Shown here piece by piece: positions 19,344-36,900 of a stretch of 64,000 nucleotides of DNA; position 1 is the first letter of the stretch, and every line of letters starts with the position of its first letter. The stretch lies in assembly GCF_055900595.2 (NCBI RefSeq), contig NZ_CM148325.1, one strand, 5' to 3'. The notes under the pieces were generated by a model. The model was not told where the DNA came from. It was given only the letters and a program-made list of their open reading frames with translations, and ran no database searches. The position numbers and the translations under genes are program-made.

Positions 19344-19784
19344 TTTAGGTTGTGGTGAGTGGGGGTTGTGTTTAGGGCCGGGGAGAGTTGGGGTATGACT
19401 ACGAAAGCCCGCTCTCCTGCGACCACTTTTATCATAGGAGTGTGGAAGTGCTTTTCCATCAATCGCGATGACGTCTTTGTCATCTGAAGAATGACATTCA
19501 CGCATCCGGTTAATAAAGCATTCGTGAAATTTTGCAGGACTGATACATGATACAACTCTGGCAATAGTATCGTGAACAGGAATACCATTTTCAAAATCAC
19601 CATATTGCTTCAAAAAATCGAGATGAGTTTCCCCGAAATCCTCTATATATTCCCAACCTTCTGCTCCAGAAATAACGGCACAAATAGTCAACAGTAGAAT
19701 ATCCGATAATTTATGTTCCACTTTCCAGGCTTGTCTGTAATCGGGGATAATAGAAATATGTTCCATCAATTTTTTAAGTTCCAT
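19296..19784 (-). pseudogene. H-repeat (ISAs1-family) transposase, N-terminal fragment
   Basis: [80 protein letters not shown]... matches Rhs-associated H-repeat protein N-terminus; C-terminal two-thirds absent. Confidence 0.75.
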
Positions 19785-19968
19785 TTTGTTCTCCTTAATT
19801 ATGTAAGGAGTATTTGATCATGTATAAGCAATAAAAAACAGCTTCAGGTAATGAGGAATATCTCAATTTTTAAACATAAAATGCGAATTGTTTAGTACAA
19901 AAAAGCAGCGTTACGTGATCTTTCCCTGCTAAGGCCGGTAAGGCTAACCTCGTCTGGTTCCGCCACCC

Positions 19969-21519: not shown

Positions 21520-22383
21520 CTATTTTTTATGATAATCAACAATATCATGAATAATTATTTCATTTTCTGTTTCAGAATATAAAACTCTATCTCCCCCTCT
21601 TCCTTTACCACTTCCTGGTAAGTCGGCTGCTGATTTCCCTTTTAAATCACCATGTAAAGAATGCTGGTTTTTTCCTGACTCACCACGAGAAAGCATAATT
21701 TTAATAGCATCATAGGCTTCAGCTTGTTTTCCTTTGAGCGCATCCCCCTTCTTCGCCGCCAAATCCTCCTCTATGATGGTTTTCATTTGGGTAGGACATT
21801 TTTCACCTGCCAGCCCCCACGGGTCGCACCAACCCACCGGATTATGCACATAAGACTGCGTATCCAGCCCGCCGCTCAGTTTCAGCGGATCCTGGCTTAA
21901 ATACTGCCCCGTCCCGGCGTCGTAGTAGCGGTGTAAATTATACCACAGCCCGCTCTCCTCATCCTGCCACTGGCCCATGAAGCCCGCATCGCAGCTTTCA
22001 CGCTCACTGTCCGGCGAGTCGTTTGCAGCCAGCCCCCACAGGCTGCGGTGTTTCGTCCACACCTTCCGCCCGTTCGCGCAGTACATCTCCTGCGGCGCGC
22101 CGTCCGGGCCGGTCACTACCGGGTAAAAATAACTTCTGTCATCATTCGCCGCCCGGCTTTCCTTCGCCAGCAGTTCAAATCTGCCCCCGGTAGTGCCACT
22201 GCTCCCGTAGCGCCGGGCTGCCGTCTGCATAGCGTTTCTCACTTGTGGAAAGCGCCATCCCAAGCCACTGGTAGCGTACTTCGCTGATGGCGTGCGGGCT
22301 TCGTTTCCACGCTGCCCGGATAACGCAGCGTTTTGCCGTTCGTCTGCCAAAGGCGTCGTAGCTGTACTGCCACACTTCACCAT
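21520..22383 (-). CDS. rhs: Rhs C-terminal segment: end of Rhs core (DPxGL motif) plus YoeB/RelE-like toxin domain; out of frame with the upstream Rhs ORF
   Basis: Contains GLWYNLHRYYDAGTGQYLSQDPLKLSGGLDTQSYVHNPVGWCDPWGL (Rhs core end) followed by ~95 aa ending ...GKGRGGDRVLYSETENEIIIHDIVDYHKK resembling YoeB/RelE toxins; overlaps the main Rhs ORF in another frame over 22175-22383. Confidence 0.7.
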   Translation of the reverse strand: MVKCGSTATTPLADERQNAALSGQRGNEARTPSAKYATSGLGWRFPQVRNAMQTAARRYGSSGTTGGRFELLAKESRAANDDRSYFYPVVTGPDGAPQEMYCANGRKVWTKHRSLWGLAANDSPDSERESCDAGFMGQWQDEESGLWYNLHRYYDAGTGQYLSQDPLKLSGGLDTQSYVHNPVGWCDPWGLAGEKCPTQMKTIIEEDLAAKKGDALKGKQAEAYDAIKIMLSRGESGKNQHSLHGDLKGKSAADLPGSGKGRGGDRVLYSETENEIIIHDIVDYHKK

Positions 22384-25300
22384 CTGGTGTCTTTATCTCG
22401 CGCAGACGGTCGAAGTCATCCCAGCGGTAGCGCCACTCCTGCGGGCGAAAGCCGAGTTTTTGGTCGGTGCGCTTTGTCACCCTGCCGCAGGCGTCGTATC
22501 CGTAGCGGCTGTCACCGGCCTGGTTCACACATTCATTATTGTACTGGTGCTGCGACAGAATACCGTTTATCCGGCTTTCCGCTATCTGCTCATTGACCGT
22601 ATAGCGGTAGCGCTCTTCCTGTGCCGGACCACTGGCGTCCAGCCGCAGTACGCTGGTTATCTGGTCGCGGGCATCGTACTGGTAGCGCGTTTCCCGCTCC
22701 GTACGCGTTTTCGACCACACTTCATGCCCGGTCAGGCGGCCCGATTTATCCCACGCGTAACGGTGTTCGCCCAGCGGTCGCCACGATGCCACGCTCTGGT
22801 GGCTGCCTGCCAGCCGCTCTGCGCCCTGTTTTTGCCATGCCGTACGTCCGCAGGTGTCGTATCCCTGCTCCTGCATATAGACCGCATGGTTCAGCGGCGT
22901 CTGCGCCAGCCAGCTTTCCTCATCCTCCGGGCGGTAACGCCGATTTTTTTCAAGGCCCGCGGGGGAATGACTGAAGTCCATCCGGTGACCGTTGCTGCGG
23001 TAGCCCGTCAGAATGCCCGAAGCGTCGTATTCTCTCTGTGTTTCCCCGTCCGGCGTTGTGGTGCCAGTCAGCCTTCCGGCTTCGTCGTAACGGTACTCCG
23101 TGCGCTGGCCGTCCTGCTCTTCCGCCACCAGACGATGGCGTTCGTCCCACTCCAGTTTTACCTCACTGGTGAGCGTATAGCCTGCTTCACTGCCGTCGCT
23201 GCGCTCATACACCTGCGCACTCACCATCCGGTCATGGCGGTCGTACTGATAGCTGAGTTTCTGATGCTCGCCGCTGATGGTCGCCACCCGGCCATATTCA
23301 TCCCTCGCATAGCGCCATACGCTGCCGTCCGGGCGGTGTTTTTCTGCCAGCCGGCCCTGTTCATCACGGATATAGACGGTTCTGCGTCCCGACCAGTCCT
23401 CCTCCCCGGCCATCTGGCCCGCCGCATCGTAGTACAGCCGCCACTGCTGGTTGCCGCTGCGCGTAAGCTGCGTGAGCCTTGCGGCACCATCGTAGTCGCA
23501 AAGTATCCGCTGCCCGCCCGCGTCCTCCACTTCCCGCAGCAGGTCAAATGCCCCGTGGCGGTAGCGCGTGGTCTGGCCCATGGCCCCGGTGTGGAGAGTG
23601 ATTTTGCCTTCACCATCATAGCGGAAGGTTTCAGCGCCACCGTCGGCCCGGATTACTGCGCTCAGTTTCTCATGCGGGTTATCGGCACCGGGGCGGTACT
23701 GCCAGTTCACGCTGCGCCCTTCAGCATCCACCAGCCCCGTCAGCCGCAGCCAGCGGTCTTCCGTGTAATGGGTTGTGCGGCCTTCACCATCGGTATGGGA
23801 AAGCAGGCCACCGTGAGCGCTGTAGCTCCACTGTTCGTGGCTGCCGTCCGGGTACTGTATCTCCTTGAGCAGACCGTCTTCGGTATGACGGTACTGCCAG
23901 TTCTGCCCGTTCACCTCCCGGCGGATAAGATTCCCTTCGGCGTTATAATGGTACGCCGCCGTGGTGCGGTGGTCCTGGTATGCCGTAACCTGACCAAATT
24001 CATCCCACTGCCATTCACGTTTACGCCCGTTCTCGTCCGTTTCGCTCAGGATACGCCCGGCATAATCGCGTTTTATCTGAGTAATGCGCCCACCCGGCTG
24101 GCGAATACACAGCGGCTGGTCGTATTCGTTACGCTCCCATTCAGTGATACGCCCCAGCGGGTCACGCTGTTTTTTCAGCAGCCAGGACTCATCGAACCAC
24201 AGCGTGGTGGTGGCTCCGGTGGCATCGGTGTAATCGGTTCTGCGCTCCTCCGGGAAGTAGCGGAAGGTGTCGTTATACAGGCCTTCCTGTGTGCCTGTGG
24301 CAGTCACCCGGCCTTCATCGTCATAGCGCAGGTGGAAGTGCGTCGGGCCGTTGTCGCGCCAGGAACTCAGCCAGCCCTGTTCGGTATAGGTATAATGCAA
24401 CGCGCCATTAAAGCGGGTCTGCACATCGCTCAGTCGCTGTTCATCGCCGTGACTGATATAGTCATAGCGCACCAGCTCGCTGCCGTCTGACTCGTCGATC
24501 ACACGGAATATCTGCCCCTGCGGGCCACACATCACCCGCAGATTCAGGCCGCTGCTGTGGGTTACGTTTGTCAGTTGGCCGATGACGTTATAGGTGAAGC
24601 GAATTTCGTTGCGGTTGCGGTCTTTTATTGCCGTTAGCCGCAGGCGGCGTGCGCCGGGGGAGATGGGCGTAAAGATATAACCCAATTGTGAGTATTCGTC
24701 GAAGATAATAGCCCGCTCACGGTTTCCCAGGAGGCGATAGTGCGGGACAAGCAGGTTACGGCTACTGTATGGTGCCTGCTCCGTGGAGTAGGCCAGACAT
24801 AGCCCCTCAGCATCAAAGTAGGTGACGTTTTTCCCGTTGCAATCGAACTCCAGAAACTGCGACCAGTTACACAACCAGCGACTGCCCAGCAAACCACTAA
24901 CCGGATGTCGGCCTGTATAAGCACGTTTCAGCGTCAGCGGTAAAATATGCGGATAGTTGAAATCAGTTCGGTAATCCAGATATTCACCCGTTCCGGTATC
25001 CACCGGATCGCTGAACCCCTGACTGATACGCTCATTTGCGGCTCTGTTTAACTGCTTTGCTCCCCATAGAGCTGTTAACACTTCCAGACTTGATACAACA
25101 GATTGCTCCAGCACCGTCATATCGGCATTAATCGGCCCATACTGTCCGGTCGTCTTATCAGCCGTAATGGTTTTACATCCTTCCTGAATAACTGCCGAGC
25201 AGGTAATTTTATGGCCCTTACGCGCCAGCGGCAGGCTGTTGACGGAAATAATTTTGCTCCCTTCCACTATCTGTGGAGGAGGACTGCCCGGATCCTTACT

Positions 25301-25942
25301 ACATTCAACCGGATCAGTGACGCGAGCTACCGCTTTTCCTTCAAAAAAAACATTAGGAGAGCCTTCTACAATCTGTCCGGTTTCAGATGCCCAGCGGGAA
25401 CCAATTACCATCGCTGCGCCACCGACAAATCCACCAGCTAATCCCCCGGCCCCGGCAGCAACGGTGGCAGCCAGCACACCCAATGCCGCGCCCCCTGTAG
25501 CGACAACCAGAGCTCCCACTGCAATCCCTACAATAAGTCCACCGATTAACCCACCAATAGCACCCAGAAAGGAATTGTTATGAACAATGTGATGACCCAC
25601 ACACGCAGGTATATCTGTTGGGCCGGAAACTGCGTGATCTTTACCCCAGGTATCCATGAACCAGTCACCTGCTTTGGTGCCCAGCCATCCCCCCAGCATC
25701 CCGCCAACCAGTCCGGCAATCAAAGGGCCTCCAAATCCTGCAACAGCTTTGGCTATTCCGGCTGCACAGGTGTTTGCTGCTGCGGCTGCCAGTCCTACCT
25801 TTGCCGTTGCTCCCACCATACTGACAGCCATTATTCCAGTACTGGCAATATGTCCTGTGGTAGCAATACTCTCCACTGTTTCGGCATTACTGTCCCGTTG
25901 ATCCAGCTCCGCTAACTTCTCCTGCGCGCTTTTTTCCGTCAT
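22175..25942 (-). CDS. rhs: prePAAR-TMD-PAAR-Rhs T6SS effector, main ORF (YD-repeat shell)
   Basis: 1255-aa ORF: N-terminal region with Gly-rich transmembrane helices and PAAR-like segment (GSPNVFFEGKAVARVTDPVEC), then many YD repeats; stop at 22175 where another frame continues. Confidence 0.8.
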   Translation of the reverse strand: MTEKSAQEKLAELDQRDSNAETVESIATTGHIASTGIMAVSMVGATAKVGLAAAAANTCAAGIAKAVAGFGGPLIAGLVGGMLGGWLGTKAGDWFMDTWGKDHAVSGPTDIPACVGHHIVHNNSFLGAIGGLIGGLIVGIAVGALVVATGGAALGVLAATVAAGAGGLAGGFVGGAAMVIGSRWASETGQIVEGSPNVFFEGKAVARVTDPVECSKDPGSPPPQIVEGSKIISVNSLPLARKGHKITCSAVIQEGCKTITADKTTGQYGPINADMTVLEQSVVSSLEVLTALWGAKQLNRAANERISQGFSDPVDTGTGEYLDYRTDFNYPHILPLTLKRAYTGRHPVSGLLGSRWLCNWSQFLEFDCNGKNVTYFDAEGLCLAYSTEQAPYSSRNLLVPHYRLLGNRERAIIFDEYSQLGYIFTPISPGARRLRLTAIKDRNRNEIRFTYNVIGQLTNVTHSSGLNLRVMCGPQGQIFRVIDESDGSELVRYDYISHGDEQRLSDVQTRFNGALHYTYTEQGWLSSWRDNGPTHFHLRYDDEGRVTATGTQEGLYNDTFRYFPEERRTDYTDATGATTTLWFDESWLLKKQRDPLGRITEWERNEYDQPLCIRQPGGRITQIKRDYAGRILSETDENGRKREWQWDEFGQVTAYQDHRTTAAYHYNAEGNLIRREVNGQNWQYRHTEDGLLKEIQYPDGSHEQWSYSAHGGLLSHTDGEGRTTHYTEDRWLRLTGLVDAEGRSVNWQYRPGADNPHEKLSAVIRADGGAETFRYDGEGKITLHTGAMGQTTRYRHGAFDLLREVEDAGGQRILCDYDGAARLTQLTRSGNQQWRLYYDAAGQMAGEEDWSGRRTVYIRDEQGRLAEKHRPDGSVWRYARDEYGRVATISGEHQKLSYQYDRHDRMVSAQVYERSDGSEAGYTLTSEVKLEWDERHRLVAEEQDGQRTEYRYDEAGRLTGTTTPDGETQREYDASGILTGYRSNGHRMDFSHSPAGLEKNRRYRPEDEESWLAQTPLNHAVYMQEQGYDTCGRTAWQKQGAERLAGSHQSVASWRPLGEHRYAWDKSGRLTGHEVWSKTRTERETRYQYDARDQITSVLRLDASGPAQEERYRYTVNEQIAESRINGILSQHQYNNECVNQAGDSRYGYDACGRVTKRTDQKLGFRPQEWRYRWDDFDRLREIKTPDGEVWQYSYDAFGRRTAKRCVIRAAWKRSPHAISEVRYQWLGMALSTSEKRYADGSPALREQWHYRGQI

Positions 25943-25972: not shown

Positions 25973-26404
25973 TTATTTATCCTGTGGCATTCCAAAACAA
26001 AAATTCAATAATGCTCCCCGCATCGCTTTACGATCCTCCTCTGCCAGCGCCTGCGTTGAGGAATAGGTCAGCGTCAGTACTTGTCGCTCGTTCAGGATTA
26101 CCAGCAGCAACTGCTGTATCATCACCCCCTTGTTATCCCAGCTAAATTCCCAGTATTCCGCCGGGCGCTCCTGCACATGACAGCGTTCTTCTACGGTGAA
26201 CACCATTTTCGACAGTTCGGTACGGAATTTCTTTTTCTGCACCGCCAGATAGTCATCAAACTGCGCGCCTTCCGGCAATATTTCACGAGTGACAACTACA
26301 TTTGCTCCGGCAACCGCACTTAGTACTGGCGTCAGAATATTCATACTGCTGTCCTGCCAGTTTCCCGGCAGAGTGAAATGCCCTTCATTAATGAGATATT
26401 GCAT
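25973..26404 (-). CDS. eagR: DUF1795-family Eag chaperone for PAAR-Rhs effector
   Basis: 143-aa ORF between vgrG and the PAAR-Rhs gene, the canonical position and size of Eag chaperones. Confidence 0.7.
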   Translation of the reverse strand: MQYLINEGHFTLPGNWQDSSMNILTPVLSAVAGANVVVTREILPEGAQFDDYLAVQKKKFRTELSKMVFTVEERCHVQERPAEYWEFSWDNKGVMIQQLLLVILNERQVLTLTYSSTQALAEEDRKAMRGALLNFCFGMPQDK

Positions 26405-26436
26405 TGTTATTTTTCCCTGAAAATTAATGAAATGGA

Positions 26437-28656
26437 TTACTGTGGATTTAGCGCCAGATGGGTGGGTCCATCGAGGGTGATAGTGCCGTCTGAATTCATA
26501 ACAAGAGTGCTTTTTCCGACAGTCAACTTTATCTGCGTTGCTGCGGTAAGGTGTATCGCCCCGGTTTTTGACGTGATGGTGATATTCCCTTCTACCGTCT
26601 CCGTGCAGGTTCCCGTTTCTACCGTCACCTCGCGTTTACCCGTTTTCACCGTCAGAGACTGGTCGCCTTCCGTTACGGTAATATTCCGGTTGCCTTTGAT
26701 GGTTTCGGTATGCTTACCATCAACAAATTCCGTGCGGTCGATTTTTACCGTGGATGTTTCGTTATGAATGATGGTTTTCGTCCGATCTGCCTTTACCGTG
26801 TGTGTTTCGTTATTTTTCACGACGGTATTCAGATCTTTCTCCGCAAGAAACCTCACTTCTTCCGCCCCCGTTTTATCGTCAAAGCGCAGCATGTTTCCGT
26901 TGGTCGCCCCCCCCTGTAACGAGTGGCTGAATATCCCGCTCTGCGACGCCATGCCCGGTAGCCCCCACGGCGGCATGGTGTCCTGGTTGTAGGTGCGCCC
27001 CACGATAATCGGTAGATCCGGGTCGCCATTTTTGAAATCCACCAGCACTTCCTGGCCGATGCGCGGGATCTGGATCATGCCGAATCCTTTACCCGCCCAC
27101 GGATAGCTGACGCGGATCCAGCAGGAGCTGTTTTCGTCATTATTACCGTAACGATCCCAGCCAAACTGCACCTTCACCCGGCCATATTTATCCGTCCAGA
27201 TTTCCTGCCCTACCGGGCCGGTGACGATGGCGCTCTGCGGGCCTTTGGTGTGGGGTTTGCTCAGGGTTCGTTGTGGGCGGTAAACTTCGCGGGTGGGATG
27301 CAGTTCAAACGTGGTGACATAGGTAAAATGCTGATCCTGGCCGCTGTGCTGCGCGTTGTCCCGTAAAAACAGCGTGGTTTGTACCAACAGATATTCCTGA
27401 TTAATTTCTGCCGTCGGGTGATTCATCAACGTAAAGGTGTACCCGGTCATGAGGGTACGGATATGACCGGCCCCATGTGCCCGGCTGCCGGGGCTGCGCT
27501 GCGCTTCCATACGAATGCGCGTCAGCATCTCACCTTCGCCCGTAGTGAAGTAATCACCAGGCCATTCATAATGCTCATATTCAGCATGACCGGTATTACG
27601 CGGACTAGCCACGGTACTTTTAAGCAGCGAACGAGGCTTCATAAAATCAAAATCGTCCATCACCCACTTTCCAGTACGCAGTCTCTCACTGGCCGTAATG
27701 GTGTGGATAAATTCTTTGTCCAGTTTCAGCCCTTCCTGGTGCCACTCCACCAGTGGCGAGTCAGGGCACGCTTTATGACCATTGATGGCATCCGTCAGCA
27801 CCAGCGTATGGCAGTTCTCGCTGTGCTCAAACCACCAGTAGATTCCCCACTCCTGCATCAGGCGCTGGATGAAATCGAAGTCGGTTTCACCATACTGCAC
27901 CTGCCAGACGCGGGGTGGATAATTTTCCACCAGCCGCTTTTCCACCGGAAAGGAATATTCATCCAGTACTTCATCGAGAATATCCACCACGGTTTTGTTC
28001 TGGAACGCTTTGTAGTCGCTGGTATGGGTCAGCAGCTTCAGCCATGGCTCAATGCGTAATTCATACGTTACCGAACGGCCCTCATGGCCGACCACCCTCG
28101 CCGCCGTCACCAGCCCGCTGATATACCGTTTTCCGCCACCGTCCAGTTCGATACTGACGCACAGGTCTTTGCCTACCATGGGCTGAAGCGGCAGGTTGGC
28201 CGCGGGGGAAACGTATCCCAGGTTCAGGGCGTCCGGCGTTTTAAGCTGTACTGTGTAGGAAAACAGATTCCCAAGCCCTTCCGAACCATTCATGCCTGCG
28301 AACAGCAGCATCTGCGGCGGCACCGAACCACCACTTACTGTGACGTTATGCGCCCCCGGACCACCGGCTGCAAGCGACGCCGCCGCATCCTGAACTGCAC
28401 CAGCCATATCCGATATCCCTGCTGCTGCGGCGGCGGCTTGCGCAGCGGCTACTGCGGCTTTAACCAGACCTGACGGTTCCGGCAACGCACCAAACAGGTC
28501 CGCCACTGCCTGTTCTGCCATCTGCTCGGCGGCATCAGCTACATCGGTTGCGGCTGAACCTGTGCTCATACTGCCACTTTCGCCAGCTATTGGTGGTGTG
28601 GTGATGACGGGTCCACCGTTTCCAACTGGTTTATTACCCGTAGATACAAAACTCAT
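26437..28656 (-). CDS. vgrG: T6SS spike protein VgrG (TssI) with ~110-aa Ala/Gly-rich N-terminal extension
   Basis: 739-aa ORF with gp27/gp5-like regions (e.g. [15 protein letters not shown]) and C-terminal beta-helix repeats; canonical VgrG N-terminus begins after residue ~110. Confidence 0.9.
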
Positions 28657-28680
28657 GATATTTGCTCCTTTAATACCGGA

Positions 28681-29067
28681 TTAAAATCTAGCCCCTGGTG
28701 GCCAAAAAATATAAGTAATCACTCTCCATTGCCCGTCTTTATAATGAAACCAACATGTCAGATTCAAATCCCCCTGCAAATTCCAGAACATTTCCTTAAT
28801 AGGAACATTTTGAAATTCAGGATCTGTTATGCGATAAGTTTGATTCAAGCCGATATAATACTCACCAACAAATTTATATCGTGGCCTCACGAACTCATGA
28901 GCAGGCGGCCCATATTTCTTCATAAAAAAGATGTCATTACTTCCATCATGTATATCATTTTCTTCATAATATTTGGTGGATTGAGCAACTGCAGAAGGCG
29001 AGAAAACATTCACTGTAGTTATGTAAGTTATTGAAAGGAAAATCACTATAATACAGAAAAATTTCAT
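28681..29067 (-). CDS. Putative periplasmic immunity protein for the adjacent HExxH effector
   Basis: 128-aa ORF with N-terminal signal-like hydrophobic segment; overlaps effector stop; C-terminal half conserved with the paralog at 30776-31147 (PIKEMFW..GDLNLTC.FHYKDGQWRVI.Y.FWPPGA.F). Confidence 0.6.
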   Translation of the reverse strand: MKFFCIIVIFLSITYITTVNVFSPSAVAQSTKYYEENDIHDGSNDIFFMKKYGPPAHEFVRPRYKFVGEYYIGLNQTYRITDPEFQNVPIKEMFWNLQGDLNLTCWFHYKDGQWRVITYIFWPPGARF

Positions 29068-29765
29068 TTGGTTACATTCAATAAAGTAAATTTAGTTTCA
29101 GGCATTATGACATTCAACGTTATAGTTGCGTTTTTAAGGTATCGTTCCCGAAGCTCCATTCCCACATTCATCAACCCACTAATATCTCCAACATACGGAG
29201 ACGAAGAATCATAATCATCATCTAAGTAACCAAGTACATGTCCGGCTTCATGAGGTATATTTACTTGCAACGTATTATTACAGTTAATACATTTCGCTAC
29301 TTTTTCCAGGTCCGCTGAATCAACATGAACCGTACTGTTTTTAAAATCAACATATGTTCTTAAATCAGCACCAGGCAAAACCTTTGTTGCAATAACCAAC
29401 CAGTCTTCATTCTGAGATGCAGAAATTATTCTTACATCAAAAGGCAAAGCTTTACCCTGAAATTTTTTAGCGAACTCAGATTCACCGGAAACAGAATAAG
29501 TTATTTTCCCATTCCATGCCTGCTGAACAGATAAATATATCGCTCGCATAAAAATAGCTTTTTCCCATATAATCCAGTCATCTGTAACGGTATTATCTTT
29601 ATACCACTCATACTTCCATCTTATCACAGCCGTAATCGAACCAGTATTTTGATTTAATAAATACGTCCTCCTACCATCCTTATGTATAATGATATCGCCA
29701 TCAATATTTGTTTTTTCATAGTATTCGGCCAGCAAACTATTCTCATCATATTTAAGCTTGGTCAT
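29064..29765 (-). CDS. Putative T6SS effector with HExxH zinc-metallopeptidase-like motif
   Basis: 233-aa ORF, no signal peptide, contains NIPHEAGHVLGY; followed by overlapping signal-peptide ORF; sits between vgrG copies. Confidence 0.6.
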   Translation of the reverse strand: MTKLKYDENSLLAEYYEKTNIDGDIIIHKDGRRTYLLNQNTGSITAVIRWKYEWYKDNTVTDDWIIWEKAIFMRAIYLSVQQAWNGKITYSVSGESEFAKKFQGKALPFDVRIISASQNEDWLVIATKVLPGADLRTYVDFKNSTVHVDSADLEKVAKCINCNNTLQVNIPHEAGHVLGYLDDDYDSSSPYVGDISGLMNVGMELRERYLKNATITLNVIMPETKFTLLNVTK

Positions 29766-29831
29766 TTTACTCTCATTAAATACTAATTGTTTGTATCGAA
29801 AATATTATCTGGAAAAATATTATTTTATATA

Positions 29832-30751
29832 TTACGAGTATTGCCCCTTCAGCCGCAGCGCATCCACATACCGTCCTTCACTGCAGGGCAAGATTACGAA
29901 AGCCCGCCCCGCAAGGACTGACGCGAGGTAGTTTCTGTCCATGGCTGCTTTTATCATCTTACGTCTTAACCCTGCCTTGGTTTCGCCGTACTGCACCTGC
30001 CAGGCGCGGGGTGGATAATTTTCCACCAGCCGCTTTTCCACCGGAAAGGAATATTCATCCAGTACTTCATCGAGAATATCCACCACGGTTTTGTTCTGGA
30101 ACGCTTTGTAGTCGCTGGTATGGGTCAGCAGCTTCAGCCATGGCTCAATGCGTAATTCATACGTTACCGAACGGCCCTCATGGCCGACCACCCTCGCCGC
30201 CGTCACCAGCCCGCTGATATACCGTTTTCCGCCACCGTCCAGTTCGATACTGACGCACAGGTCTTTGCCTACCATGGGCTGAAGCGGCAGGTTGGCGGCG
30301 AGGGAGACATATCCGAGGTTCAGGGTGTCCGGGGTTTTAAGCTGTACTATGTAGGAAAACAGGTTTCCAAGCCCTTCCGAACCATTCATGCCTGCAAACA
30401 AAAGCAGCTGCGGCGGCACCGCACTACCACTTACTGTGACGTTATGCCCCCCGGACCACCGGCAGCAAGCGACGCCGCCGCATCCTGAACTGCACCAGCC
30501 ATATCCGAGATCCCTGCTGCGGCGGCTGCGGCTTGCGCAGCAGCTACTGCGGCTTTAACCAGACCTGACGGTTCCGGCAACGCACCAAACAGGTCCGCCG
30601 CGGCCTGTTCTGCCATCTGCTCGGCTGCATCAGCTACATCGGTTGCGGCTGAACTGGCGCTTACAGCACTACTTTCTCCGGCTATCGGTGGCGTGGAGAT
30701 AGCTGGCCCACCGTTACTGCCAGATTTATTACCCGTAGATACAAAACTCAT
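29832..30751 (-). pseudogene. vgrG: Truncated, frameshifted vgrG duplicate fused to H-repeat and tagF 3' remnants
   Basis: Two ORFs (30431-30751 and 29832-30419) match the first ~270 aa of the full vgrG; frame broken at a C-run near 30445-30455; 3' end reads ...[24 protein letters not shown] (H-repeat protein C-terminus) then ...[10 protein letters not shown] (tagF C-terminus). Confidence 0.75.
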
Positions 30752-30775
30752 GATATTTATTCCTTTAATATCGGA

Positions 30776-31147
30776 TTAAAATTTTGCGCCCGGCGGCCAG
30801 AAAAAATAAGAAATAACCCGCCACTGTCCATCTTTATAATGAAAAAAACATGTCAGATTTAAATCCCCCCGCAAATGCCAAAACATTTCTTTGATGGGGA
30901 TATTTCTGAATTCAGGATTCGTTGAGCGATAGACATTTTCAATCTCTATATAATACTCACCGACTAATTTATAACGAGGCTTTATAAATTCATACGCTGG
31001 CTGACCATAGTTATTTAATAGAACATTCTCTTCAACTCCATTATACACACCACTCGCATTCAGATAAGCATACCCAGGAATATCAGACATGCTATTTTTC
31101 GCCCCACCCACTATCAAAAAAATAATCACAGCGTATATTAGTTTCAT
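30776..31147 (-). CDS. Putative periplasmic immunity protein (paralog of 28681-29067)
   Basis: 123-aa ORF with N-terminal hydrophobic signal-like segment; C-terminal half conserved with the other immunity paralog. Confidence 0.6.
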   Translation of the reverse strand: MKLIYAVIIFLIVGGAKNSMSDIPGYAYLNASGVYNGVEENVLLNNYGQPAYEFIKPRYKLVGEYYIEIENVYRSTNPEFRNIPIKEMFWHLRGDLNLTCFFHYKDGQWRVISYFFWPPGAKF

Positions 31148-31160
31148 TTTTTTACGCTTT

Positions 31161-31882
31161 TCACAAAAAATTAGAACCCGGAACCATTCTATTTAACCGC
31201 TCAATGACATTTCCCATATAACGAGAGCGCAGTTCCATACCAATATTCATTAACGCACTGGCATCCCCGGAGAATGGTGTAGTTGCTTTATCTGCATCAT
31301 CACTATAGTATTCATCGGTAAGATATCCAATAATATGCCCAAGCTCATGAGACAGCCCCATTTGCTTAGAGCAAACTTTTGATGAACCAAGACATTTAGC
31401 TGCTGCAACTATATCTTTAGAGTCAAGTTCAACGTATCGACTATTCCAGACAATGGAACTCTGACGAAAACTATTTGGATCATCATTATCAATTTTAAAC
31501 ACCACCACATCCCAATACCCATGACGATCAGTCTGAATTATTTCTATTGTGAAAGATAAATCCTTACCATTAAACTTACTGACAAACTCAGACTTCCCAG
31601 AAACGGATAAAAAAACCTTATTATTCCATGTTTGATTAATGACAAAAATAACTTTTCCATGAAAGGCTTTTTTTCCATATCTGTCCAATCAGTTTTTGCA
31701 TCCCATCTTTTTATCCAATTATATTTCCATCTCAGCAACAATGAGATTGCACCATTTTCACGGTCAATTCTTAAATCTCCCCAGGCATCATTGTCCCTGA
31801 TATATCGTTTATCCAGCATTAAGTCGTCATAAGCATCGTATGCCTGCTGAATAGCCTCATCATGAGAGTCACCCATGTTCAC
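31161..31882 (-). pseudogene. HExxH-motif putative effector, paralog of 29064-29765, apparently frameshifted
   Basis: Two overlapping ORFs (31544-31882 N-terminal part, 31161-31688 C-terminal part with HELGHIIGY and LMNIGMELRSRY); frame break near a T/A homopolymer at ~31660-31690. Confidence 0.6.
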
Positions 31883-32068
31883 CTCCTTATATTGCTATAT
31901 ATCCAATAAACCTGAAGATGCTTGCTTACCCACCAACGCAGACGGGACCAAGGGTAGCCTGAAGTCAACAGATAGCAATCAACTTGAAGTTCATGGGGAT
32001 ATTTGTTTCCCCATCTACACGTTTATCGTCATATTTTTGTATAGCTATTCTCAGCATTCGTGGGTAGA

Positions 32069-32190
32069 TTATTTTTTTTCCAACCGCAGCGCATCCACAT
32101 ACCGCCCCTCGCTGTTCTGCTGCCACAACCAGCCCAGCCCCTGCTGCGCCTGCGTTAACATTTTTGCTAGCCAGCACGGTCACGGCAGGC
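32069..32190. repeat. Remnant of tagF 3' end
   Basis: Minus-strand reading gives [26 protein letters not shown], matching the C-terminus of the intact TagF at 33163-33260 ([31 protein letters not shown]). Confidence 0.75.
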
Positions 32191-32206
32191 AATTCTATGA
32201 CAGGTA

Positions 32207-32680
32207 CTACTCATCCGTACAACCCAGCCCCCGGCGCTGAACCACTTCACTGGCAAACGTAGCTCCGGTTTTTTTCATTATTCCTTTTTGTATTTTTTGC
32301 AGCGCGGGAAATGAGATTCTCCTGCATGAATCCTCTTCCCATATATCACCAGTTACAGGGCTAACTGAAAATAGTCCCCACACATCTGTCGCTCCGGCGG
32401 AAGGAGAATCATAACCTACCCCAAAACTAAAATACCCAGGATGATACAGGTTACCTTTTTTATCTTTCAGAGAACCGTCAAGAAAAAACCCAGACAATTC
32501 CACATTATATTTTTCATTTTTTAGTGAAAAAACCAATAATGCCTGCGCCTGTATTTCAGTAAGACCTGACTGGTTAACAGTCGTTAGATCAAACCGCGGC
32601 ACATTCCTGATAAGAATTTCAGCACAACAATTCACGGACACGACCATGAAAAGCAATACTGATATTAATTTACAGGACAT
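32207..32680 (-). CDS. Putative periplasmic immunity protein for the adjacent GH73-like effector
   Basis: 157-aa ORF with signal-like N-terminus MSCKLISVLLFMVVSVNCCA; overlaps effector stop. Confidence 0.5.
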   Translation of the reverse strand: MSCKLISVLLFMVVSVNCCAEILIRNVPRFDLTTVNQSGLTEIQAQALLVFSLKNEKYNVELSGFFLDGSLKDKKGNLYHPGYFSFGVGYDSPSAGATDVWGLFSVSPVTGDIWEEDSCRRISFPALQKIQKGIMKKTGATFASEVVQRRGLGCTDE

Positions 32681-33135
32681 GTTATTCTCCGCTTAACCAT
32701 ATTAATCACCCCCACTAACTCACTAGCATAACCGGTATGGCCGCCATTACTGTTTTTACCTGAATTAAAACCAGAATCAATCAATGCCTGCGCAAATTGC
32801 TCCGGAGATTTTTTATTTCTGACCGCATTACCAAATCGGATTGCAAAGGACTTTCCGCTAGTTGAAAAAGAGGTATAAGTGGCAACCCACACTTGATTAC
32901 TCCCCAGCGGGTGAACCTGTCCTGACTGTAAAGGTGCCGGACCATGCATGGAAAAGTAGTTATTGTATTCTGTCGCGATTCTACCCTGCCCGTAAAAGGA
33001 CTCCTTTGCAGCAAGCCCCAGGATATTTTCCACAGGCACATCAAGTTGCTTAGCGATTAATTCACATTCTTTCAGATATTGCTGTACAAACCTGACTGCA
33101 CCAGTGTTATTACAGGCTTTATCATAAGACCCCAT
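32665..33135 (-). CDS. Putative T6SS glycoside-hydrolase effector (GH73/FlgJ-like glucosaminidase motif)
   Basis: 156-aa ORF without signal peptide; LGLAAKESFYGQGRIATEYNNYFSMHG resembles the GH73 catalytic-Glu region (A-x-E-S-x-x-G ... NN-x-F-G) as remembered; directly downstream of tagF. Confidence 0.5.
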   Translation of the reverse strand: MGSYDKACNNTGAVRFVQQYLKECELIAKQLDVPVENILGLAAKESFYGQGRIATEYNNYFSMHGPAPLQSGQVHPLGSNQVWVATYTSFSTSGKSFAIRFGNAVRNKKSPEQFAQALIDSGFNSGKNSNGGHTGYASELVGVINMVKRRITCPVN

Positions 33136-33162
33136 GATTCACTACTCCTTGTCTGATTATTT

Positions 33163-33933
33163 TTAATGCGGCCGGATATCCAGCCGCAACGCATCCACAT
33201 ACCGCCCCTCGCTGTTCTGCTGCCAGAACCAGCCCTGCCCCTGCTGCGCCTGCGTCAGCATTTTGTCCGGCCAGCCCGGCCACGGCAGGTGGCGCACACC
33301 GGGCAGTTCCACTACCGGCACGTCCGGCAGGCCGGTGAGTTCCCGGCTACGCTGCGGTACACGTCGTAAGCCGCGTAGCCACTGCGCCCAGCGCGGCCCC
33401 GGTCGCCACATCGCCCAGAGCTGGTCTGTCTGCTCCGCCAGTCGACCGCAGCGTTCTGTCTGTGGTGAGACATGAGCTGCCGTCAACTGCGCCAGCCAGT
33501 ACAGCCAGCCCTGTGTGTCATCCAGGCTCTCTTCCAGCCATTCCCGCCCGACACGCTGGTAAATCACCAGTGGCCACGGCCTGCCCGTACTGTCACGCGA
33601 GGCGGTCAGCACCCCGGTCAGCCACTCATCGCGCCCGCCAATGGGGAGAAATCCCGGCGACAGCACAAAACTCCACGGCAATGGGTGGTGCTCCGGTAGT
33701 GCCGTTTTCTCACGTGGTGACAGGTGCATCCAGCCGTCATTTGTTCCGGCCTTCTCGGCATCCGCGCCGTCCGGCACCACGATATGCCGCCCCTGTCCCA
33801 GCCACGTCTGCTGGTTCAGCCACGCCTGCCACACCTGCCCTTCGTTCGCGCTCACCCGCCAGCGCACGTAGTCCCGCTGGTCCGGCAGTCTGCCGAACAT
33901 CGCCGGAGCCGATACCTCTGCCCGGCGCATCAC
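33163..33933 (-). CDS. tagF: T6SS-associated protein TagF
   Basis: 256-aa ORF translationally coupled to the tssM stop (ATGA overlap); region PWSFVLSPGFLPIGGRDEWLTGVLTASRDSTGRPWPLVIY resembles TagF as remembered. Confidence 0.7.
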   Translation of the reverse strand: MMRRAEVSAPAMFGRLPDQRDYVRWRVSANEGQVWQAWLNQQTWLGQGRHIVVPDGADAEKAGTNDGWMHLSPREKTALPEHHPLPWSFVLSPGFLPIGGRDEWLTGVLTASRDSTGRPWPLVIYQRVGREWLEESLDDTQGWLYWLAQLTAAHVSPQTERCGRLAEQTDQLWAMWRPGPRWAQWLRGLRRVPQRSRELTGLPDVPVVELPGVRHLPWPGWPDKMLTQAQQGQGWFWQQNSEGRYVDALRLDIRPH

Positions 33934-36900
33934 AGCGCTCGCTCCGGGCAGGCGAAGCGTTGCAATAGCCCGCGGTTCACCGGGTCAAAATCCCGTCCGG
34001 CGGTGATTTCCAGCACCACCCGCCGCCCGTCAAAACTGTACTCCACCTGCTGTGTTCCCCGTACCACCGTCTCCTGCGCGTTACCCGCATCCAGCAGGTG
34101 AAACAGCGCCCATGGCCCGTTAGTCAGCAACGTCGAGGTGTCCTGGCGGATGCGCGGGCTGGCGGTGATTTCCGCCATTGAGCCGTTGCGCGGCCCCGGC
34201 CAGTTCACTTTCAGCGGCCTGACCGGGCCGTGAGCGTAGCGAAGCACCTGGCCGTCAATGTCAATCACCAGTTCGGTGATGGCAGGGTCCATATCCACCA
34301 CCCGCACCTGCATCGCCCAGGAAAACTTTTTCCCGCCTTCCCCATTAAAAAAAACGCTGCGGATCTGTTTCGCCTCCTGAAACGGTGTCAGGTCCGGCCC
34401 AAGCAACGTCATGTTGCCTTCGGTCGGTTTGTAGCGCCACGGGTTGCTGGCGGTGTCCGCCAGTGGGGCCAGTTGCTTCGTCCAGAACGCATCCAGCACG
34501 CCGCCGCTGGCAAAGATATGGTTAAAATCGTCCGCGCTGACTTCCTGCGGGCTGTCGGTGAAGGGGTAGCGCCCGTCGATGGCGTCGCGGCACTCATCAC
34601 CGATCACCGCTTCCATCTGCGCGTTCAGCACTTCACCGGTGCCGGCGTTGATTTTTCGCGTTCCCTGCTGCGTGAGATCCAGCAGAATATTTTTCAGTGG
34701 CGCGGGCAGTTTTGCCGCCTCCAATTGCAGTTTATCCGCCGCAGAAATGCGGCCAGGTAATGTGCTCGCTGCCAGTGCACTATCAGCGATGGTGAGCTGG
34801 GTGTAATACTCATTGAGCATCGTCAGCAGCGAATTTAACTGCGGCGCGCCGCCGCCCTGCCCGCTGTCTGTCCGCCCGGAAACCACTTCCCGCAAGGCGG
34901 CGAAACGGTCATCCACCAGTGATTTCTCTAGCCGCTCTTCCGGGTGGATGTCCTGCAATAGCTTTGCCGTCTGCACTGCTTTTCCCACATTGCCGGAGAG
35001 CCGGTCCTGCGTGCGCTGGGCCATCTGCTTTTGTCTGGCCTGCGCATCCAGCGGCGGCACCAGCGTGGTCTGCTCCACCACCGCTTTACTCAGGCGCATC
35101 AGCGGGGAATCCGGCGAGGCCAGGGTACGCAGCACCTGAAGGTCATACGCCAGCCCGGGACTGCCGTCTTCCCCGGCACTGTTGATGCTGTGAATACTGG
35201 CCAGAAAATCCTGCCAGCGGCGGGCATATTCAGCCAGGTACAGGCGGCGTACCTCACGGGTAACCGGGAGTTCCTGCCCCGGCAACTGGCTCATCACAAT
35301 ATCCGTCGTTTTTTTTTGCGTGTTTTCCCGGCCCATCACCCAGGCGTCGTCCGCTGATGCGGCTGCGACAAACTCCGACAGCCGTTTGTCGAACAGTTCC
35401 CGGTAGCCTTCGCGAGTGAAGATGCCGGGCACGCCCCGATCCAGCGGCGCGCCATCCGTGCGGACAAAAACCGTTCCCGCATCCGCGCCCACAGCGCGAA
35501 CCAGCGAAAACTCCTGCGGTGCTTCGCTCTCCATGGAAGCCAGGGCTCGAGTGTAGATACGCTCGGTGCTGGTATGGCCGTCAAGGAAAGCTCGCGCCTG
35601 GCGGATCAGCCCCTCATCTTTTTCCCAGGGCAAATGCACCACGCGGCTGCCGTCAAACAGGGCATCGATATGCTCCAGCACGGCGGCGCGACCGCCGAAC
35701 TCCGCCACGCTGTCGCGGTTGCCCAGGTCGTTCAGCACCCAGGCGTGGATCTCCGCCGCGTTGTATTTATCCTCGTGGTCCTTATCGAGGTTCAGCAACA
35801 GATAAACATGCAGGGCGTCATAGGCGGCTTTGCTGTCCTGACGCGCAATCGCATCCGAAAGCACGTATTCCATGCGTTTCACCAGCGGTGGCAGCAGTAA
35901 CTGGTCCAGCAGACGGTCATACAGGGATGCGACGCTCTCCATCACCGGCGGAACGCTGTAAAGACCATAACACCAGGCCAGCGGCGGCGAGTCCGGGTCC
36001 AGTCCCGGCCATGCAGAGAGCGCCCGTGCCTGGTTCAGCAGGGCCGGAACAGGCTGCATAGCAGGTTTTCCGGTATAGGCTTTGACATCACCATCCAGTT
36101 GGGTCGTCCGGCTGGCGATTTCATTCAGATAACCGCTGTTCCCCTGCTGGCTACCCTGCATGCCCTGCCACAACCAGAAAGCCAGCGCCAGTACCAGCAG
36201 ATGCCCGCCAGTACGCAGCAGGCGATAACGCCAGGCCCATTGAAGATTCGGCTCCACCAGGTGCGCTTCGCGGAAGATAAACTGCGTCAGTAGATCGTGC
36301 AGGAAATAGCTGCGGTTGCCGTCCGGCAGGGTATGGGATGGGGAATCAGCCTTCCCTTTGATCGCCCGGACAAAACGCTGCCAGATGCCCGACTGGTCAG
36401 CCACGGCGTCTGCCTGCGCCTGCGCGGCGCTGGTAAAAAATACGCCGCGCAGGGTGTTGTTAAGCTGGGTGGCGTCAAATTTTGAGTCGAGGAAAATCTG
36501 CTCAATGGCTTCCAGCAGCGGCGCACCCAGCGCGGCAAATTCACGCGGGAAGCGGTAGAGCCGCTGGCGGCTTTGAAGGTCGTACTCTTCCTGCAACCGG
36601 GTATCCAGCCCCTGATCCAGCCGCAGCGTCAGGTTTGCCAGTTCCCGGCCACAGAGCGCATGCAGCGACTGCGGATCGCTGGCGTGACGCCTGCGGCTGT
36701 AAGGCAGGGTGAAGCCCCAAACCTGGGCGCGCAGGTGGCTGGTCAGCCCGTGGAAATACTCCGTAAAGCCCGGCAGCAGATCCATTTTGGTGACGACCAG
36801 ATAGACCGGAAAACGAATACCCAGCGTCTCCCGCAGTTCCGCCAGCCGCGCACGCAGGGCCGCACAGGCAGCCAGTCGTTCCGCCGGGGACTGCGCGGTC

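Follow-up and report, generated by a model that had tools for sequence, protein, structure and literature searches.

The chimeric sequence at 30751-29832 (minus strand) is best read as a non-functional relic, marking the point where a second effector-immunity-vgrG module (cassette C) came to stand behind an older module (cassette B) within the aspV-linked T6SS variable region of an E. coli chromosome. We give this reading a probability of roughly 0.8. The relic lies in a stretch of DNA of 64,000 nucleotides, the whole of which we call the window, and it joins a 5' piece of vgrG (vgrG'), the end of an ISEc1 element (ISEc1') and the 3' end of tagF (tagF''). We regard it as an unremarkable scar of a type already known, which RefSeq flags as a pseudogene, and as a new example of T6SS cassette stacking.

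Gene map and anatomy of the relic

The region from 26400 to 34000 (7.6 kb) is 98.8% identical over its full length to E. coli strain R32_14_1F, and collinearity between the window and this strain extends over approximately 39 kb. The counterpart in R32_14_1F is a T6SS island flanked by tRNA-Asp/dnaQ and yafV. The T6SS island of EHEC is also associated with aspV (PMC5363993). All relevant genes lie on the minus strand, as follows.

37796-33930, minus: tssM
33163-33933, minus: resident, intact tagF (TIGR03373; RefSeq annotation)
33135-32665, minus: glucosaminidase-type effector
32680-32207, minus: immunity gene of the glucosaminidase-type effector
32079-32189, minus: tagF', 111 nt left over from a tagF 3' end, with 89% identity to 33179-33289
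31161-31882, minus: effB of cassette B, a paralogue of effC (35% amino acid identity)
30776-31147, minus: immB of cassette B, a putative immunity protein of 123 aa
30751-29832, minus: the whole chimeric relic vgrG'-ISEc1'-tagF''
29979-30751, minus: vgrG', codons 1-258 with its own ATG and RBS, 773 nt, by alignment to 27883-28656
30447-30452, minus: frameshift site, C6 on the plus strand (G6 on the coding strand), by comparison with the full copy
29883-29979, minus: 3'-terminal fragment of ISEc1 (H-repeat, ISAs1 family), about 30 transposase codons and the IS terminus
29832-29882, minus: tagF'', the last 16 codons and TAA stop, in frame with the chimeric ORF
29766-29831, minus: native tagF-effC intergenic spacer, collinear with the spacer of strain 06-00048
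29064-29765, minus: effC of cassette C, a putative T6SS effector of 233 aa, HExxH metzincin-like
28681-29067, minus: immC, a putative immunity protein of 128 aa
26437-28656, minus: full-length vgrG, 739 aa (TIGR03361)
26404-25973, minus: DcrB/EagR-like chaperone
from 25942, minus: rhs

An additional C in a C-run at about 22184 divides the main rhs gene (21520-25942, minus) into two ORFs, 22175-25942 and 21520-22383. R32_14_1F lacks this base, which puts the C-terminal toxin region out of frame. Over the 39 kb compared with R32_14_1F, every indel falls in rhs, effB or vgrG', and none in the T6SS core genes.

The sequence-only reading had described a near-identical direct repeat of the 5' part of vgrG, broken by a homopolymer frameshift and running into H-repeat and tagF remnants. 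A truncated 5' copy is indeed present (773 nt, codons 1-258, with a partial TIGR03361 match), and the direct repeat stands, with limits that the alignment places at 29979/27883 rather than 29990/27895. Positions 29979-30751 (773 nt) align to the first 774 nt of vgrG (27883-28656) at 93.3% identity, in 774 columns with 51 substitutions and one 1-nt gap. The vgrG part ends at 258 codons and not after about 270 aa as first described. The differences are spread unevenly: 49 lie within the first 456 nt, the 292 nt that follow have none, and 3 come shortly before the break, and "near-identical" holds for the distal ~315 nt but not for the rest. The perfect 292-nt tract equates 28200-27909 with 30296-30005.

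Both copies are on the minus strand, with the same ATG start and a similar Shine-Dalgarno sequence. Upstream of the ATG the homology is weaker (68-84%) and reaches about 250 nt into the immunity genes. The whole effector-immunity-vgrG module repeats with a period of 2,095-2,096 nt. VgrG proteins of the class found here carry an Ala-rich N-terminal extension of about 110 aa before the TIGR03361 core, which starts at residue 112; the extension is encoded at 28326-28656 and 30431-30751 (minus). The length of the Ala-rich repeat varies, the window and R32_14_1F differing by a 21-nt indel at 30526.

As claimed, vgrG' carries a 1-nt frameshift, but it is no plain change of homopolymer length: the single G of the plus-strand atgcGcccccgg (28352 in the full copy) is missing, leaving C6 at 30447-30452 where the full copy reads gcgccccc (28350-28357). 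The loss at codon ~102 gives two ORFs, 30431-30751 (106 aa) and 29832-30419 (195 aa). The frameshift is common to the window and R32_14_1F only, being absent from PapRG-06-5 and AR_0077, and is therefore a late mutation of one lineage and no part of the original joining event.

Against NCBIfam TIGR03361, vgrG' scores 96 bits (cut-off 186.35) over profile positions 10-145 of 513, and the full vgrG scores 551 bits for residues 112-626 over profile positions 7-513. As regards membership of the VgrG/TssI family (TIGR03361, TIGR01646), vgrG' has neither a core match above the cut-off nor an uninterrupted frame. By its sequence, vgrG' is derived from this family without being an intact member. RefSeq (PGAP) calls the homologue of the relic a pseudogene in five genomes examined, under the label 'phage late control D family protein; frameshifted; incomplete' or, elsewhere, 'VgrG/Pvc8 family'. 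A promoter and terminator scan of 28600-32300 returned nothing above shuffled expectation.

ISEc1/H-repeat (ISAs1-family) elements are associated with Rhs regions of E. coli. The fusion to an H-repeat transposase C-terminus is borne out at 29883-29979, which matches the transposase 3' ends of ISEc1/ISAs1-family copies (yhhI, ydcC) at about 93-95% in 5,238 of the 5,426 complete E. coli genomes, with 94.9% identity to the yhhI copy. All these matches end at one base, 29883/4. In the alignment with the yhhI copy this base is the end of the element, whose terminus reads ...CTTGCCCTG (…CTTTCGTAATCTTGCCCTG), and the joint between IS and tagF is therefore a genuine insertion boundary. The joint between vgrG and the IS, on the other hand, is internal to both genes, approximately 97-99 nt inside the IS, with a single nt of microhomology; such a joint is an illegitimate one and no transposition end. 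ISEc1 transposition as the maker of the vgrG joint is ruled out on the same grounds. By identity the scrap is ISEc1, but what is left are the final 97-99 nt with the right terminus, rather than a complete element that has both termini and a transposase gene. The window, R32_14_1F and AR_0077 share a 2-nt deletion within the scrap that PapRG-06-5 lacks; through it the stop codon of the transposase is lost and the ORF extends to the tagF stop.

Elsewhere in the island, a second ISEc1 remnant at 19410-19903 holds about 500 nt of the transposase 5' part. It sits at the distal border beside yafV and is oriented like the 97-nt scrap (29883-29979). In strain Rb-50 (locus L009, 1509-4409), vgrG is cut after about 430 nt by two tandem full-length ISEc1 copies, with nothing left between the pair and yafV. 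The Rb-50 state is an independent ISEc1-associated truncation of vgrG. Judged from the Rb-50 copies and the remnant at 19410-19903, ISEc1 is active in this island.

The fusion to a tagF tail also proved correct. Positions 29832-29882 (51 nt) are collinear with the last 16 codons and stop of the intact tagF in strain 06-00048, where tagF is followed by the same spacer and then by an effC-like gene, in a cassette with 87.5% DNA identity. The piece partially matches the 3' end of the resident tagF as well. It has no match to the TagF domain (TIGR03373), and its origin is read from the collinearity with 06-00048. Since tagF'', the spacer and cassette C are collinear with that strain, they form one contiguous piece of a 'tagF-effC-immC-vgrG' locus. 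The IS end abuts tagF'', so the source DNA had ISEc1 in tagF, 51 nt before the stop, upstream of effC-immC-vgrG.

A further tagF remnant, tagF' (32079-32189), separates the glucosaminidase/immunity cassette from effB; in RefSeq it carries the label 'TagF domain-containing protein; incomplete; missing N-terminus'. The breakpoints of tagF' and tagF'' in tagF differ (111 nt vs 51 nt). The tagF' piece is a second, older scar, which indicates that a similar additive event with another breakpoint put the glucosaminidase cassette before cassette B.

Occurrence of the junction and exchange between the vgrG copies

The 227-nt junction (29766-29992) occurs with identical breakpoints, at 96.9-100% identity, in 32 of 5,426 complete E. 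coli genomes, and a variant of it in one further genome. The listed sources of the carriers include goat, baboon, poultry, pigs, cattle, wildebeest, migratory bird, frog, humans, wastewater and sediment. Eight complete genomes have the same architecture over at least 80% of the 7.6-kb region. Because the breakpoints are identical in the 32 genomes, the joint of vgrG and ISEc1 must have arisen once. The effC-immC pair at 97% identity or more is found in 33 complete E. coli genomes, with the scar adjacent in all of them. Its sole other occurrence is the 87.5%-identical native tagF-effC-immC-vgrG in 06-00048. The chief value of the scar is as a marker: it shows a single entry of the metallopeptidase-like effector/immunity cassette into the E. 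coli population sampled, followed by its spread. Our literature search found no description of this scar or of vgrG relics in the aspV island.

In strain ETEC1730 (locus L010, 4027-8832) the T6SS core is deleted, leaving tssA'-tssM'-vgrG'-ISEc1'-tagF''-effC-immC-vgrG''-rhs'. Carriers of this type have an apparently intact toxin/immunity pair without a secretion machine; the state is known from one genome examined and a metagenome contig (L014) that is 99.9% identical. The persistence of cassette C in strains without the secretion machinery is consistent with selection for retaining immunity.

Comparison of alleles bears on where vgrG' came from. The sequence-only reading had taken the relic for a duplicate of the resident vgrG, and the alleles speak otherwise: over its first 150 nt, vgrG' has 98.7% identity to the lone vgrG of strain VCSW7, which sits after a cassette B, but only 82.7% to the full vgrG of the window. 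In AR_0077, the relic agrees with the lone vgrG of strain E04 at 99.3-100% over its first 455 nt. These matches show vgrG' to be the relic of a different vgrG allele, one belonging to the upstream cassette. Meanwhile, effB and effC share 35% amino acid identity, and immB and immC 51%. Taken with the allele matches, these values make the two modules alleles of one polymorphic toxin-immunity-spike unit, now standing in series.

The two vgrG copies share identical tracts that lie at different places in the five double-copy genomes (vgrG coordinates).

Window: nt 457-748, 292 nt
R32_14_1F: nt 457-764, 308 nt
PapRG-06-5: nt 244-470, 227 nt
AR_0077: nt 99-458, 360 nt
GF4-3: nt 118-282, 165 nt

When the observed differences were placed at random 20,000 times, the tract length was matched in 0 of 20,000 permutations for the window, R32_14_1F, PapRG-06-5 and AR_0077, and in 3.8% for GF4-3. 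The tracts are more than conserved sequence, for PapRG-06-5 shows 15 differences where the window shows 0. The pattern fits independent gene conversions between the vgrG copies, and suggests that the DNA of the relic is still recombinationally active.

The single vgrG of E04 is a mosaic. It consists of the AR_0077 relic (nt 1-150), the tract common to both AR_0077 copies (151-455) and the full AR_0077 gene (456 onward). Such a mosaic is exactly what a crossover between the AR_0077 repeats would produce or, alternatively, what would have seeded the double arrangement. In principle, the 0.77-kb direct repeat could make its two copies uniform or remove the 1.3-kb ISEc1'-tagF''-effC-immC segment. 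Loss of effC-immC through the repeat seems a reasonable candidate process because of the tracts, the E04 mosaic and the precedent of Salmonella rhs. We further speculate, and hold it to be a long shot, that the vgrG 5' and tagF 3' ends act as standing anchors on which cassettes are stacked and later shed, with vgrG'/vgrG as a frequent, possibly reversible switch for effC-immC. If so, the switch would yield subpopulations with and without effC-immC, like the rearrangements of main and orphan rhs.

Origin of the scar and competing explanations

The simplest route to the relic is a single event of homology-facilitated illegitimate recombination. The donor DNA would have been tagF::ISEc1-effC-immC-vgrG, that is, tagF 5' part-ISEc1(full)-CAGTGAAGGACGG…effC. 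Incoming DNA would have been anchored through homology in vgrG or in genes downstream, and its other end, inside ISEc1, joined illegitimately to nt 773/774 of the resident vgrG. Several later changes may then have followed: the 2-nt deletion in the IS scrap, lengthening the ORF to the tagF stop; the 1-nt frameshift of the window and R32_14_1F; gene conversion, more than once, from one vgrG 5' copy to the other; and, in the majority of carriers, deletion of the T6SS core. The joint is non-homologous and bears no site-specific recombination signature, and the older immunity gene is retained (immB is intact), as additive stacking predicts. The consequence of the event would be that two toxin/immunity pairs were kept.

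Direction and number of steps are inferred, because the donor state is absent from the genomes and metagenome contigs examined. No full ISEc1 in tagF upstream of effC occurs among the 5,426 complete genomes or the metagenome contigs examined, and a metagenome scan for the joint of IS end and tagF tail, made in search of the donor, returned one contig only, of the ETEC1730 type and 99.9% identical. The position of the anchoring crossover is blurred, because later recombination reshuffled the vgrG alleles.

The chief competitor is a route in two steps, which we consider possible but doubtful. Here, homologous recombination between the donor ISEc1 (in tagF) and an ISEc1 copy common at the distal island border would have added cassette C and its vgrG-rhs region downstream of the resident rhs region. 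A deletion of approximately 8-10 kb would then have begun at vgrG nt 774 and stopped 99 nt short of the IS end, taking out the 3' part of the old vgrG together with eagR, rhs and the bulk of the IS. The ISEc1 remnant of the same orientation at the distal border, here (19410-19903) and in relatives, speaks for this route, as do the full ISEc1 copies abutting a truncated vgrG in Rb-50 and the frequency of large deletions in this island. The final joint would be identical under both routes. However, two rare events are needed instead of one, and the intermediate, a full IS beside the tagF tail, was not found in the 5,426 genomes or the metagenome scan. A local tandem duplication of one effector-immunity-vgrG 5' unit in this genome, followed by divergence, would explain why the units are in register (2,095-2,096 nt) and why homology reaches into the immunity genes. 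Yet the effectors and immunity proteins have diverged to 35% and 51% identity while parts of vgrG are 100% identical, the 5' end of vgrG' is nearer to the alleles of single-copy strains than to the neighbouring full copy, and the IS and tagF sequences in the joint are unexpected from a simple unequal crossover. We find this explanation very improbable, and in its simple in-situ form the allele comparisons (the VCSW7 match and the effector and immunity identities) rule it out.

A truncated or chimeric VgrG might also be a functional small protein, for example a decoy, an adaptor or a regulator, or its G-run a phase-variation switch. The RBS and ATG of vgrG' are intact, the frameshift lies near the border of the Ala-rich extension and the VgrG core, and in AR_0077 a single 306-aa ORF stays open through all three unrelated gene pieces. 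Against this, the ORF is broken in the window and R32_14_1F, its C-terminus varies by lineage (286 aa to the transposase stop in PapRG-06-5, 306 aa to the tagF stop in AR_0077), and the N-terminus is deleted in the ETEC1730-type carriers, which are the commonest. As for a switch, the run has six bases, short for slippage, the change is the loss of an interrupting base, and there are two run states only, the frameshifted one in 2 of the 5 double-copy genomes. Restoring the frame gives a truncated chimera still, with just a quarter of the VgrG core. A working fragment is thus barely credible to us. The chimeric protein, which keeps about a quarter of that core, most likely has no function, and the frameshift here, the varying ends and the N-terminus lost in the ETEC1730-type remnant suggest that the ORF is under no selection. 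That the repeat is an assembly artefact, mis-joined or falsely duplicated, has next to no probability. Repeats carry this risk in general, and the window has several homopolymer indels; but the architecture recurs in 8 complete genomes and the junction in 32 independent ones, from unrelated hosts and laboratories, and the copies differ at 52 positions and do not represent a single collapsed sequence. On this population evidence an assembly error is ruled out, and the repeat structure survives the objection.

The cassettes and comparison with known systems

Searches with effC and the immunity proteins gave no significant match in Pfam, NCBIfam, PADLOC or PDB sequences, and effB was likewise unmatched. 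A profile search collected 379 representatives of the effC/effB family at 50% clustering. In an alignment of 87 sequences, H172, E173, H176 and G202 are invariant, and D183, E184, Y185, D194, R206 and R208 nearly so. The AlphaFold model of effC built from this alignment has a pLDDT of 93.5; a first model from 13 sequences was unusable (pLDDT 50.7) and was discarded. The best PDB fold matches of the model are all metzincins (MMP-1, karilysin, ADAMs, serralysin), and these matches are weak (E 4e-3, TM 0.3-0.4). Weak matches to reprolysin, M6 or M64 models occur in some relatives, and LysM or PG_binding_1 domains in a few. Both immB and immC have a hydrophobic, signal-peptide-like N-terminus. We infer that effC and effB are putative zinc peptidase effectors acting in the periplasm, possibly directed at the cell wall; the family is probably an undescribed one of predicted periplasm-acting T6SS effectors.

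In the window, effB is broken by two 1-nt homopolymer deletions on the coding strand, A8 to A7 near 31667 and T7 to T6 near 31164, which five relatives lack; immB (30776-31147) is intact. These deletions could be real decay or homopolymer sequencing errors.

Growth by homology-facilitated illegitimate recombination has been proposed for the T6SS arrays of V. cholerae (Kirchberger et al., 2017; PMC5361080). As in the orphan immunity and effector-remnant arrays described there, the new module here stands beside the old one, with a presumed homologous anchor at one end and an illegitimate join at the other; truncated gene pieces are left behind and old immunity genes are kept. In contrast to those arrays, the proposed conserved anchors here would be the 3' end of tagF and the 5' end of vgrG, and what remains as a relic comes from the structural spike gene rather than from an effector 3' end. 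The old effector is also kept here (it is intact in relatives), and the joint contains an IS fragment. That fragment is about 95% identical to the 3' end of ISEc1 copies (yhhI/ydcC), terminus included; unlike ISEc1, it holds approximately 8% of the element, one end and no transposase, and is a scar and not a mobile element.

A second parallel is the Salmonella T6SS rhs locus, where 522 bp at 95% identity suffices for recombination between main and orphan rhs (Koskiniemi et al., 2014; PMC3967940). There, too, a partial direct copy lies beside a full gene, with several hundred bp at about 95% identity, and recombination between the copies alters the toxin/immunity content. The Salmonella orphan, however, is a 3' piece that can be re-activated by fusion to the main gene, whereas the relic described here is a 5' piece upstream of the full vgrG, and a crossover would be predicted to delete effC-immC and rebuild one vgrG. 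Set beside these two systems, the scar offers an E. coli example in which T6SS toxin cassettes were stacked additively and a relic underwent gene conversion with the working spike gene, with no new mechanism.
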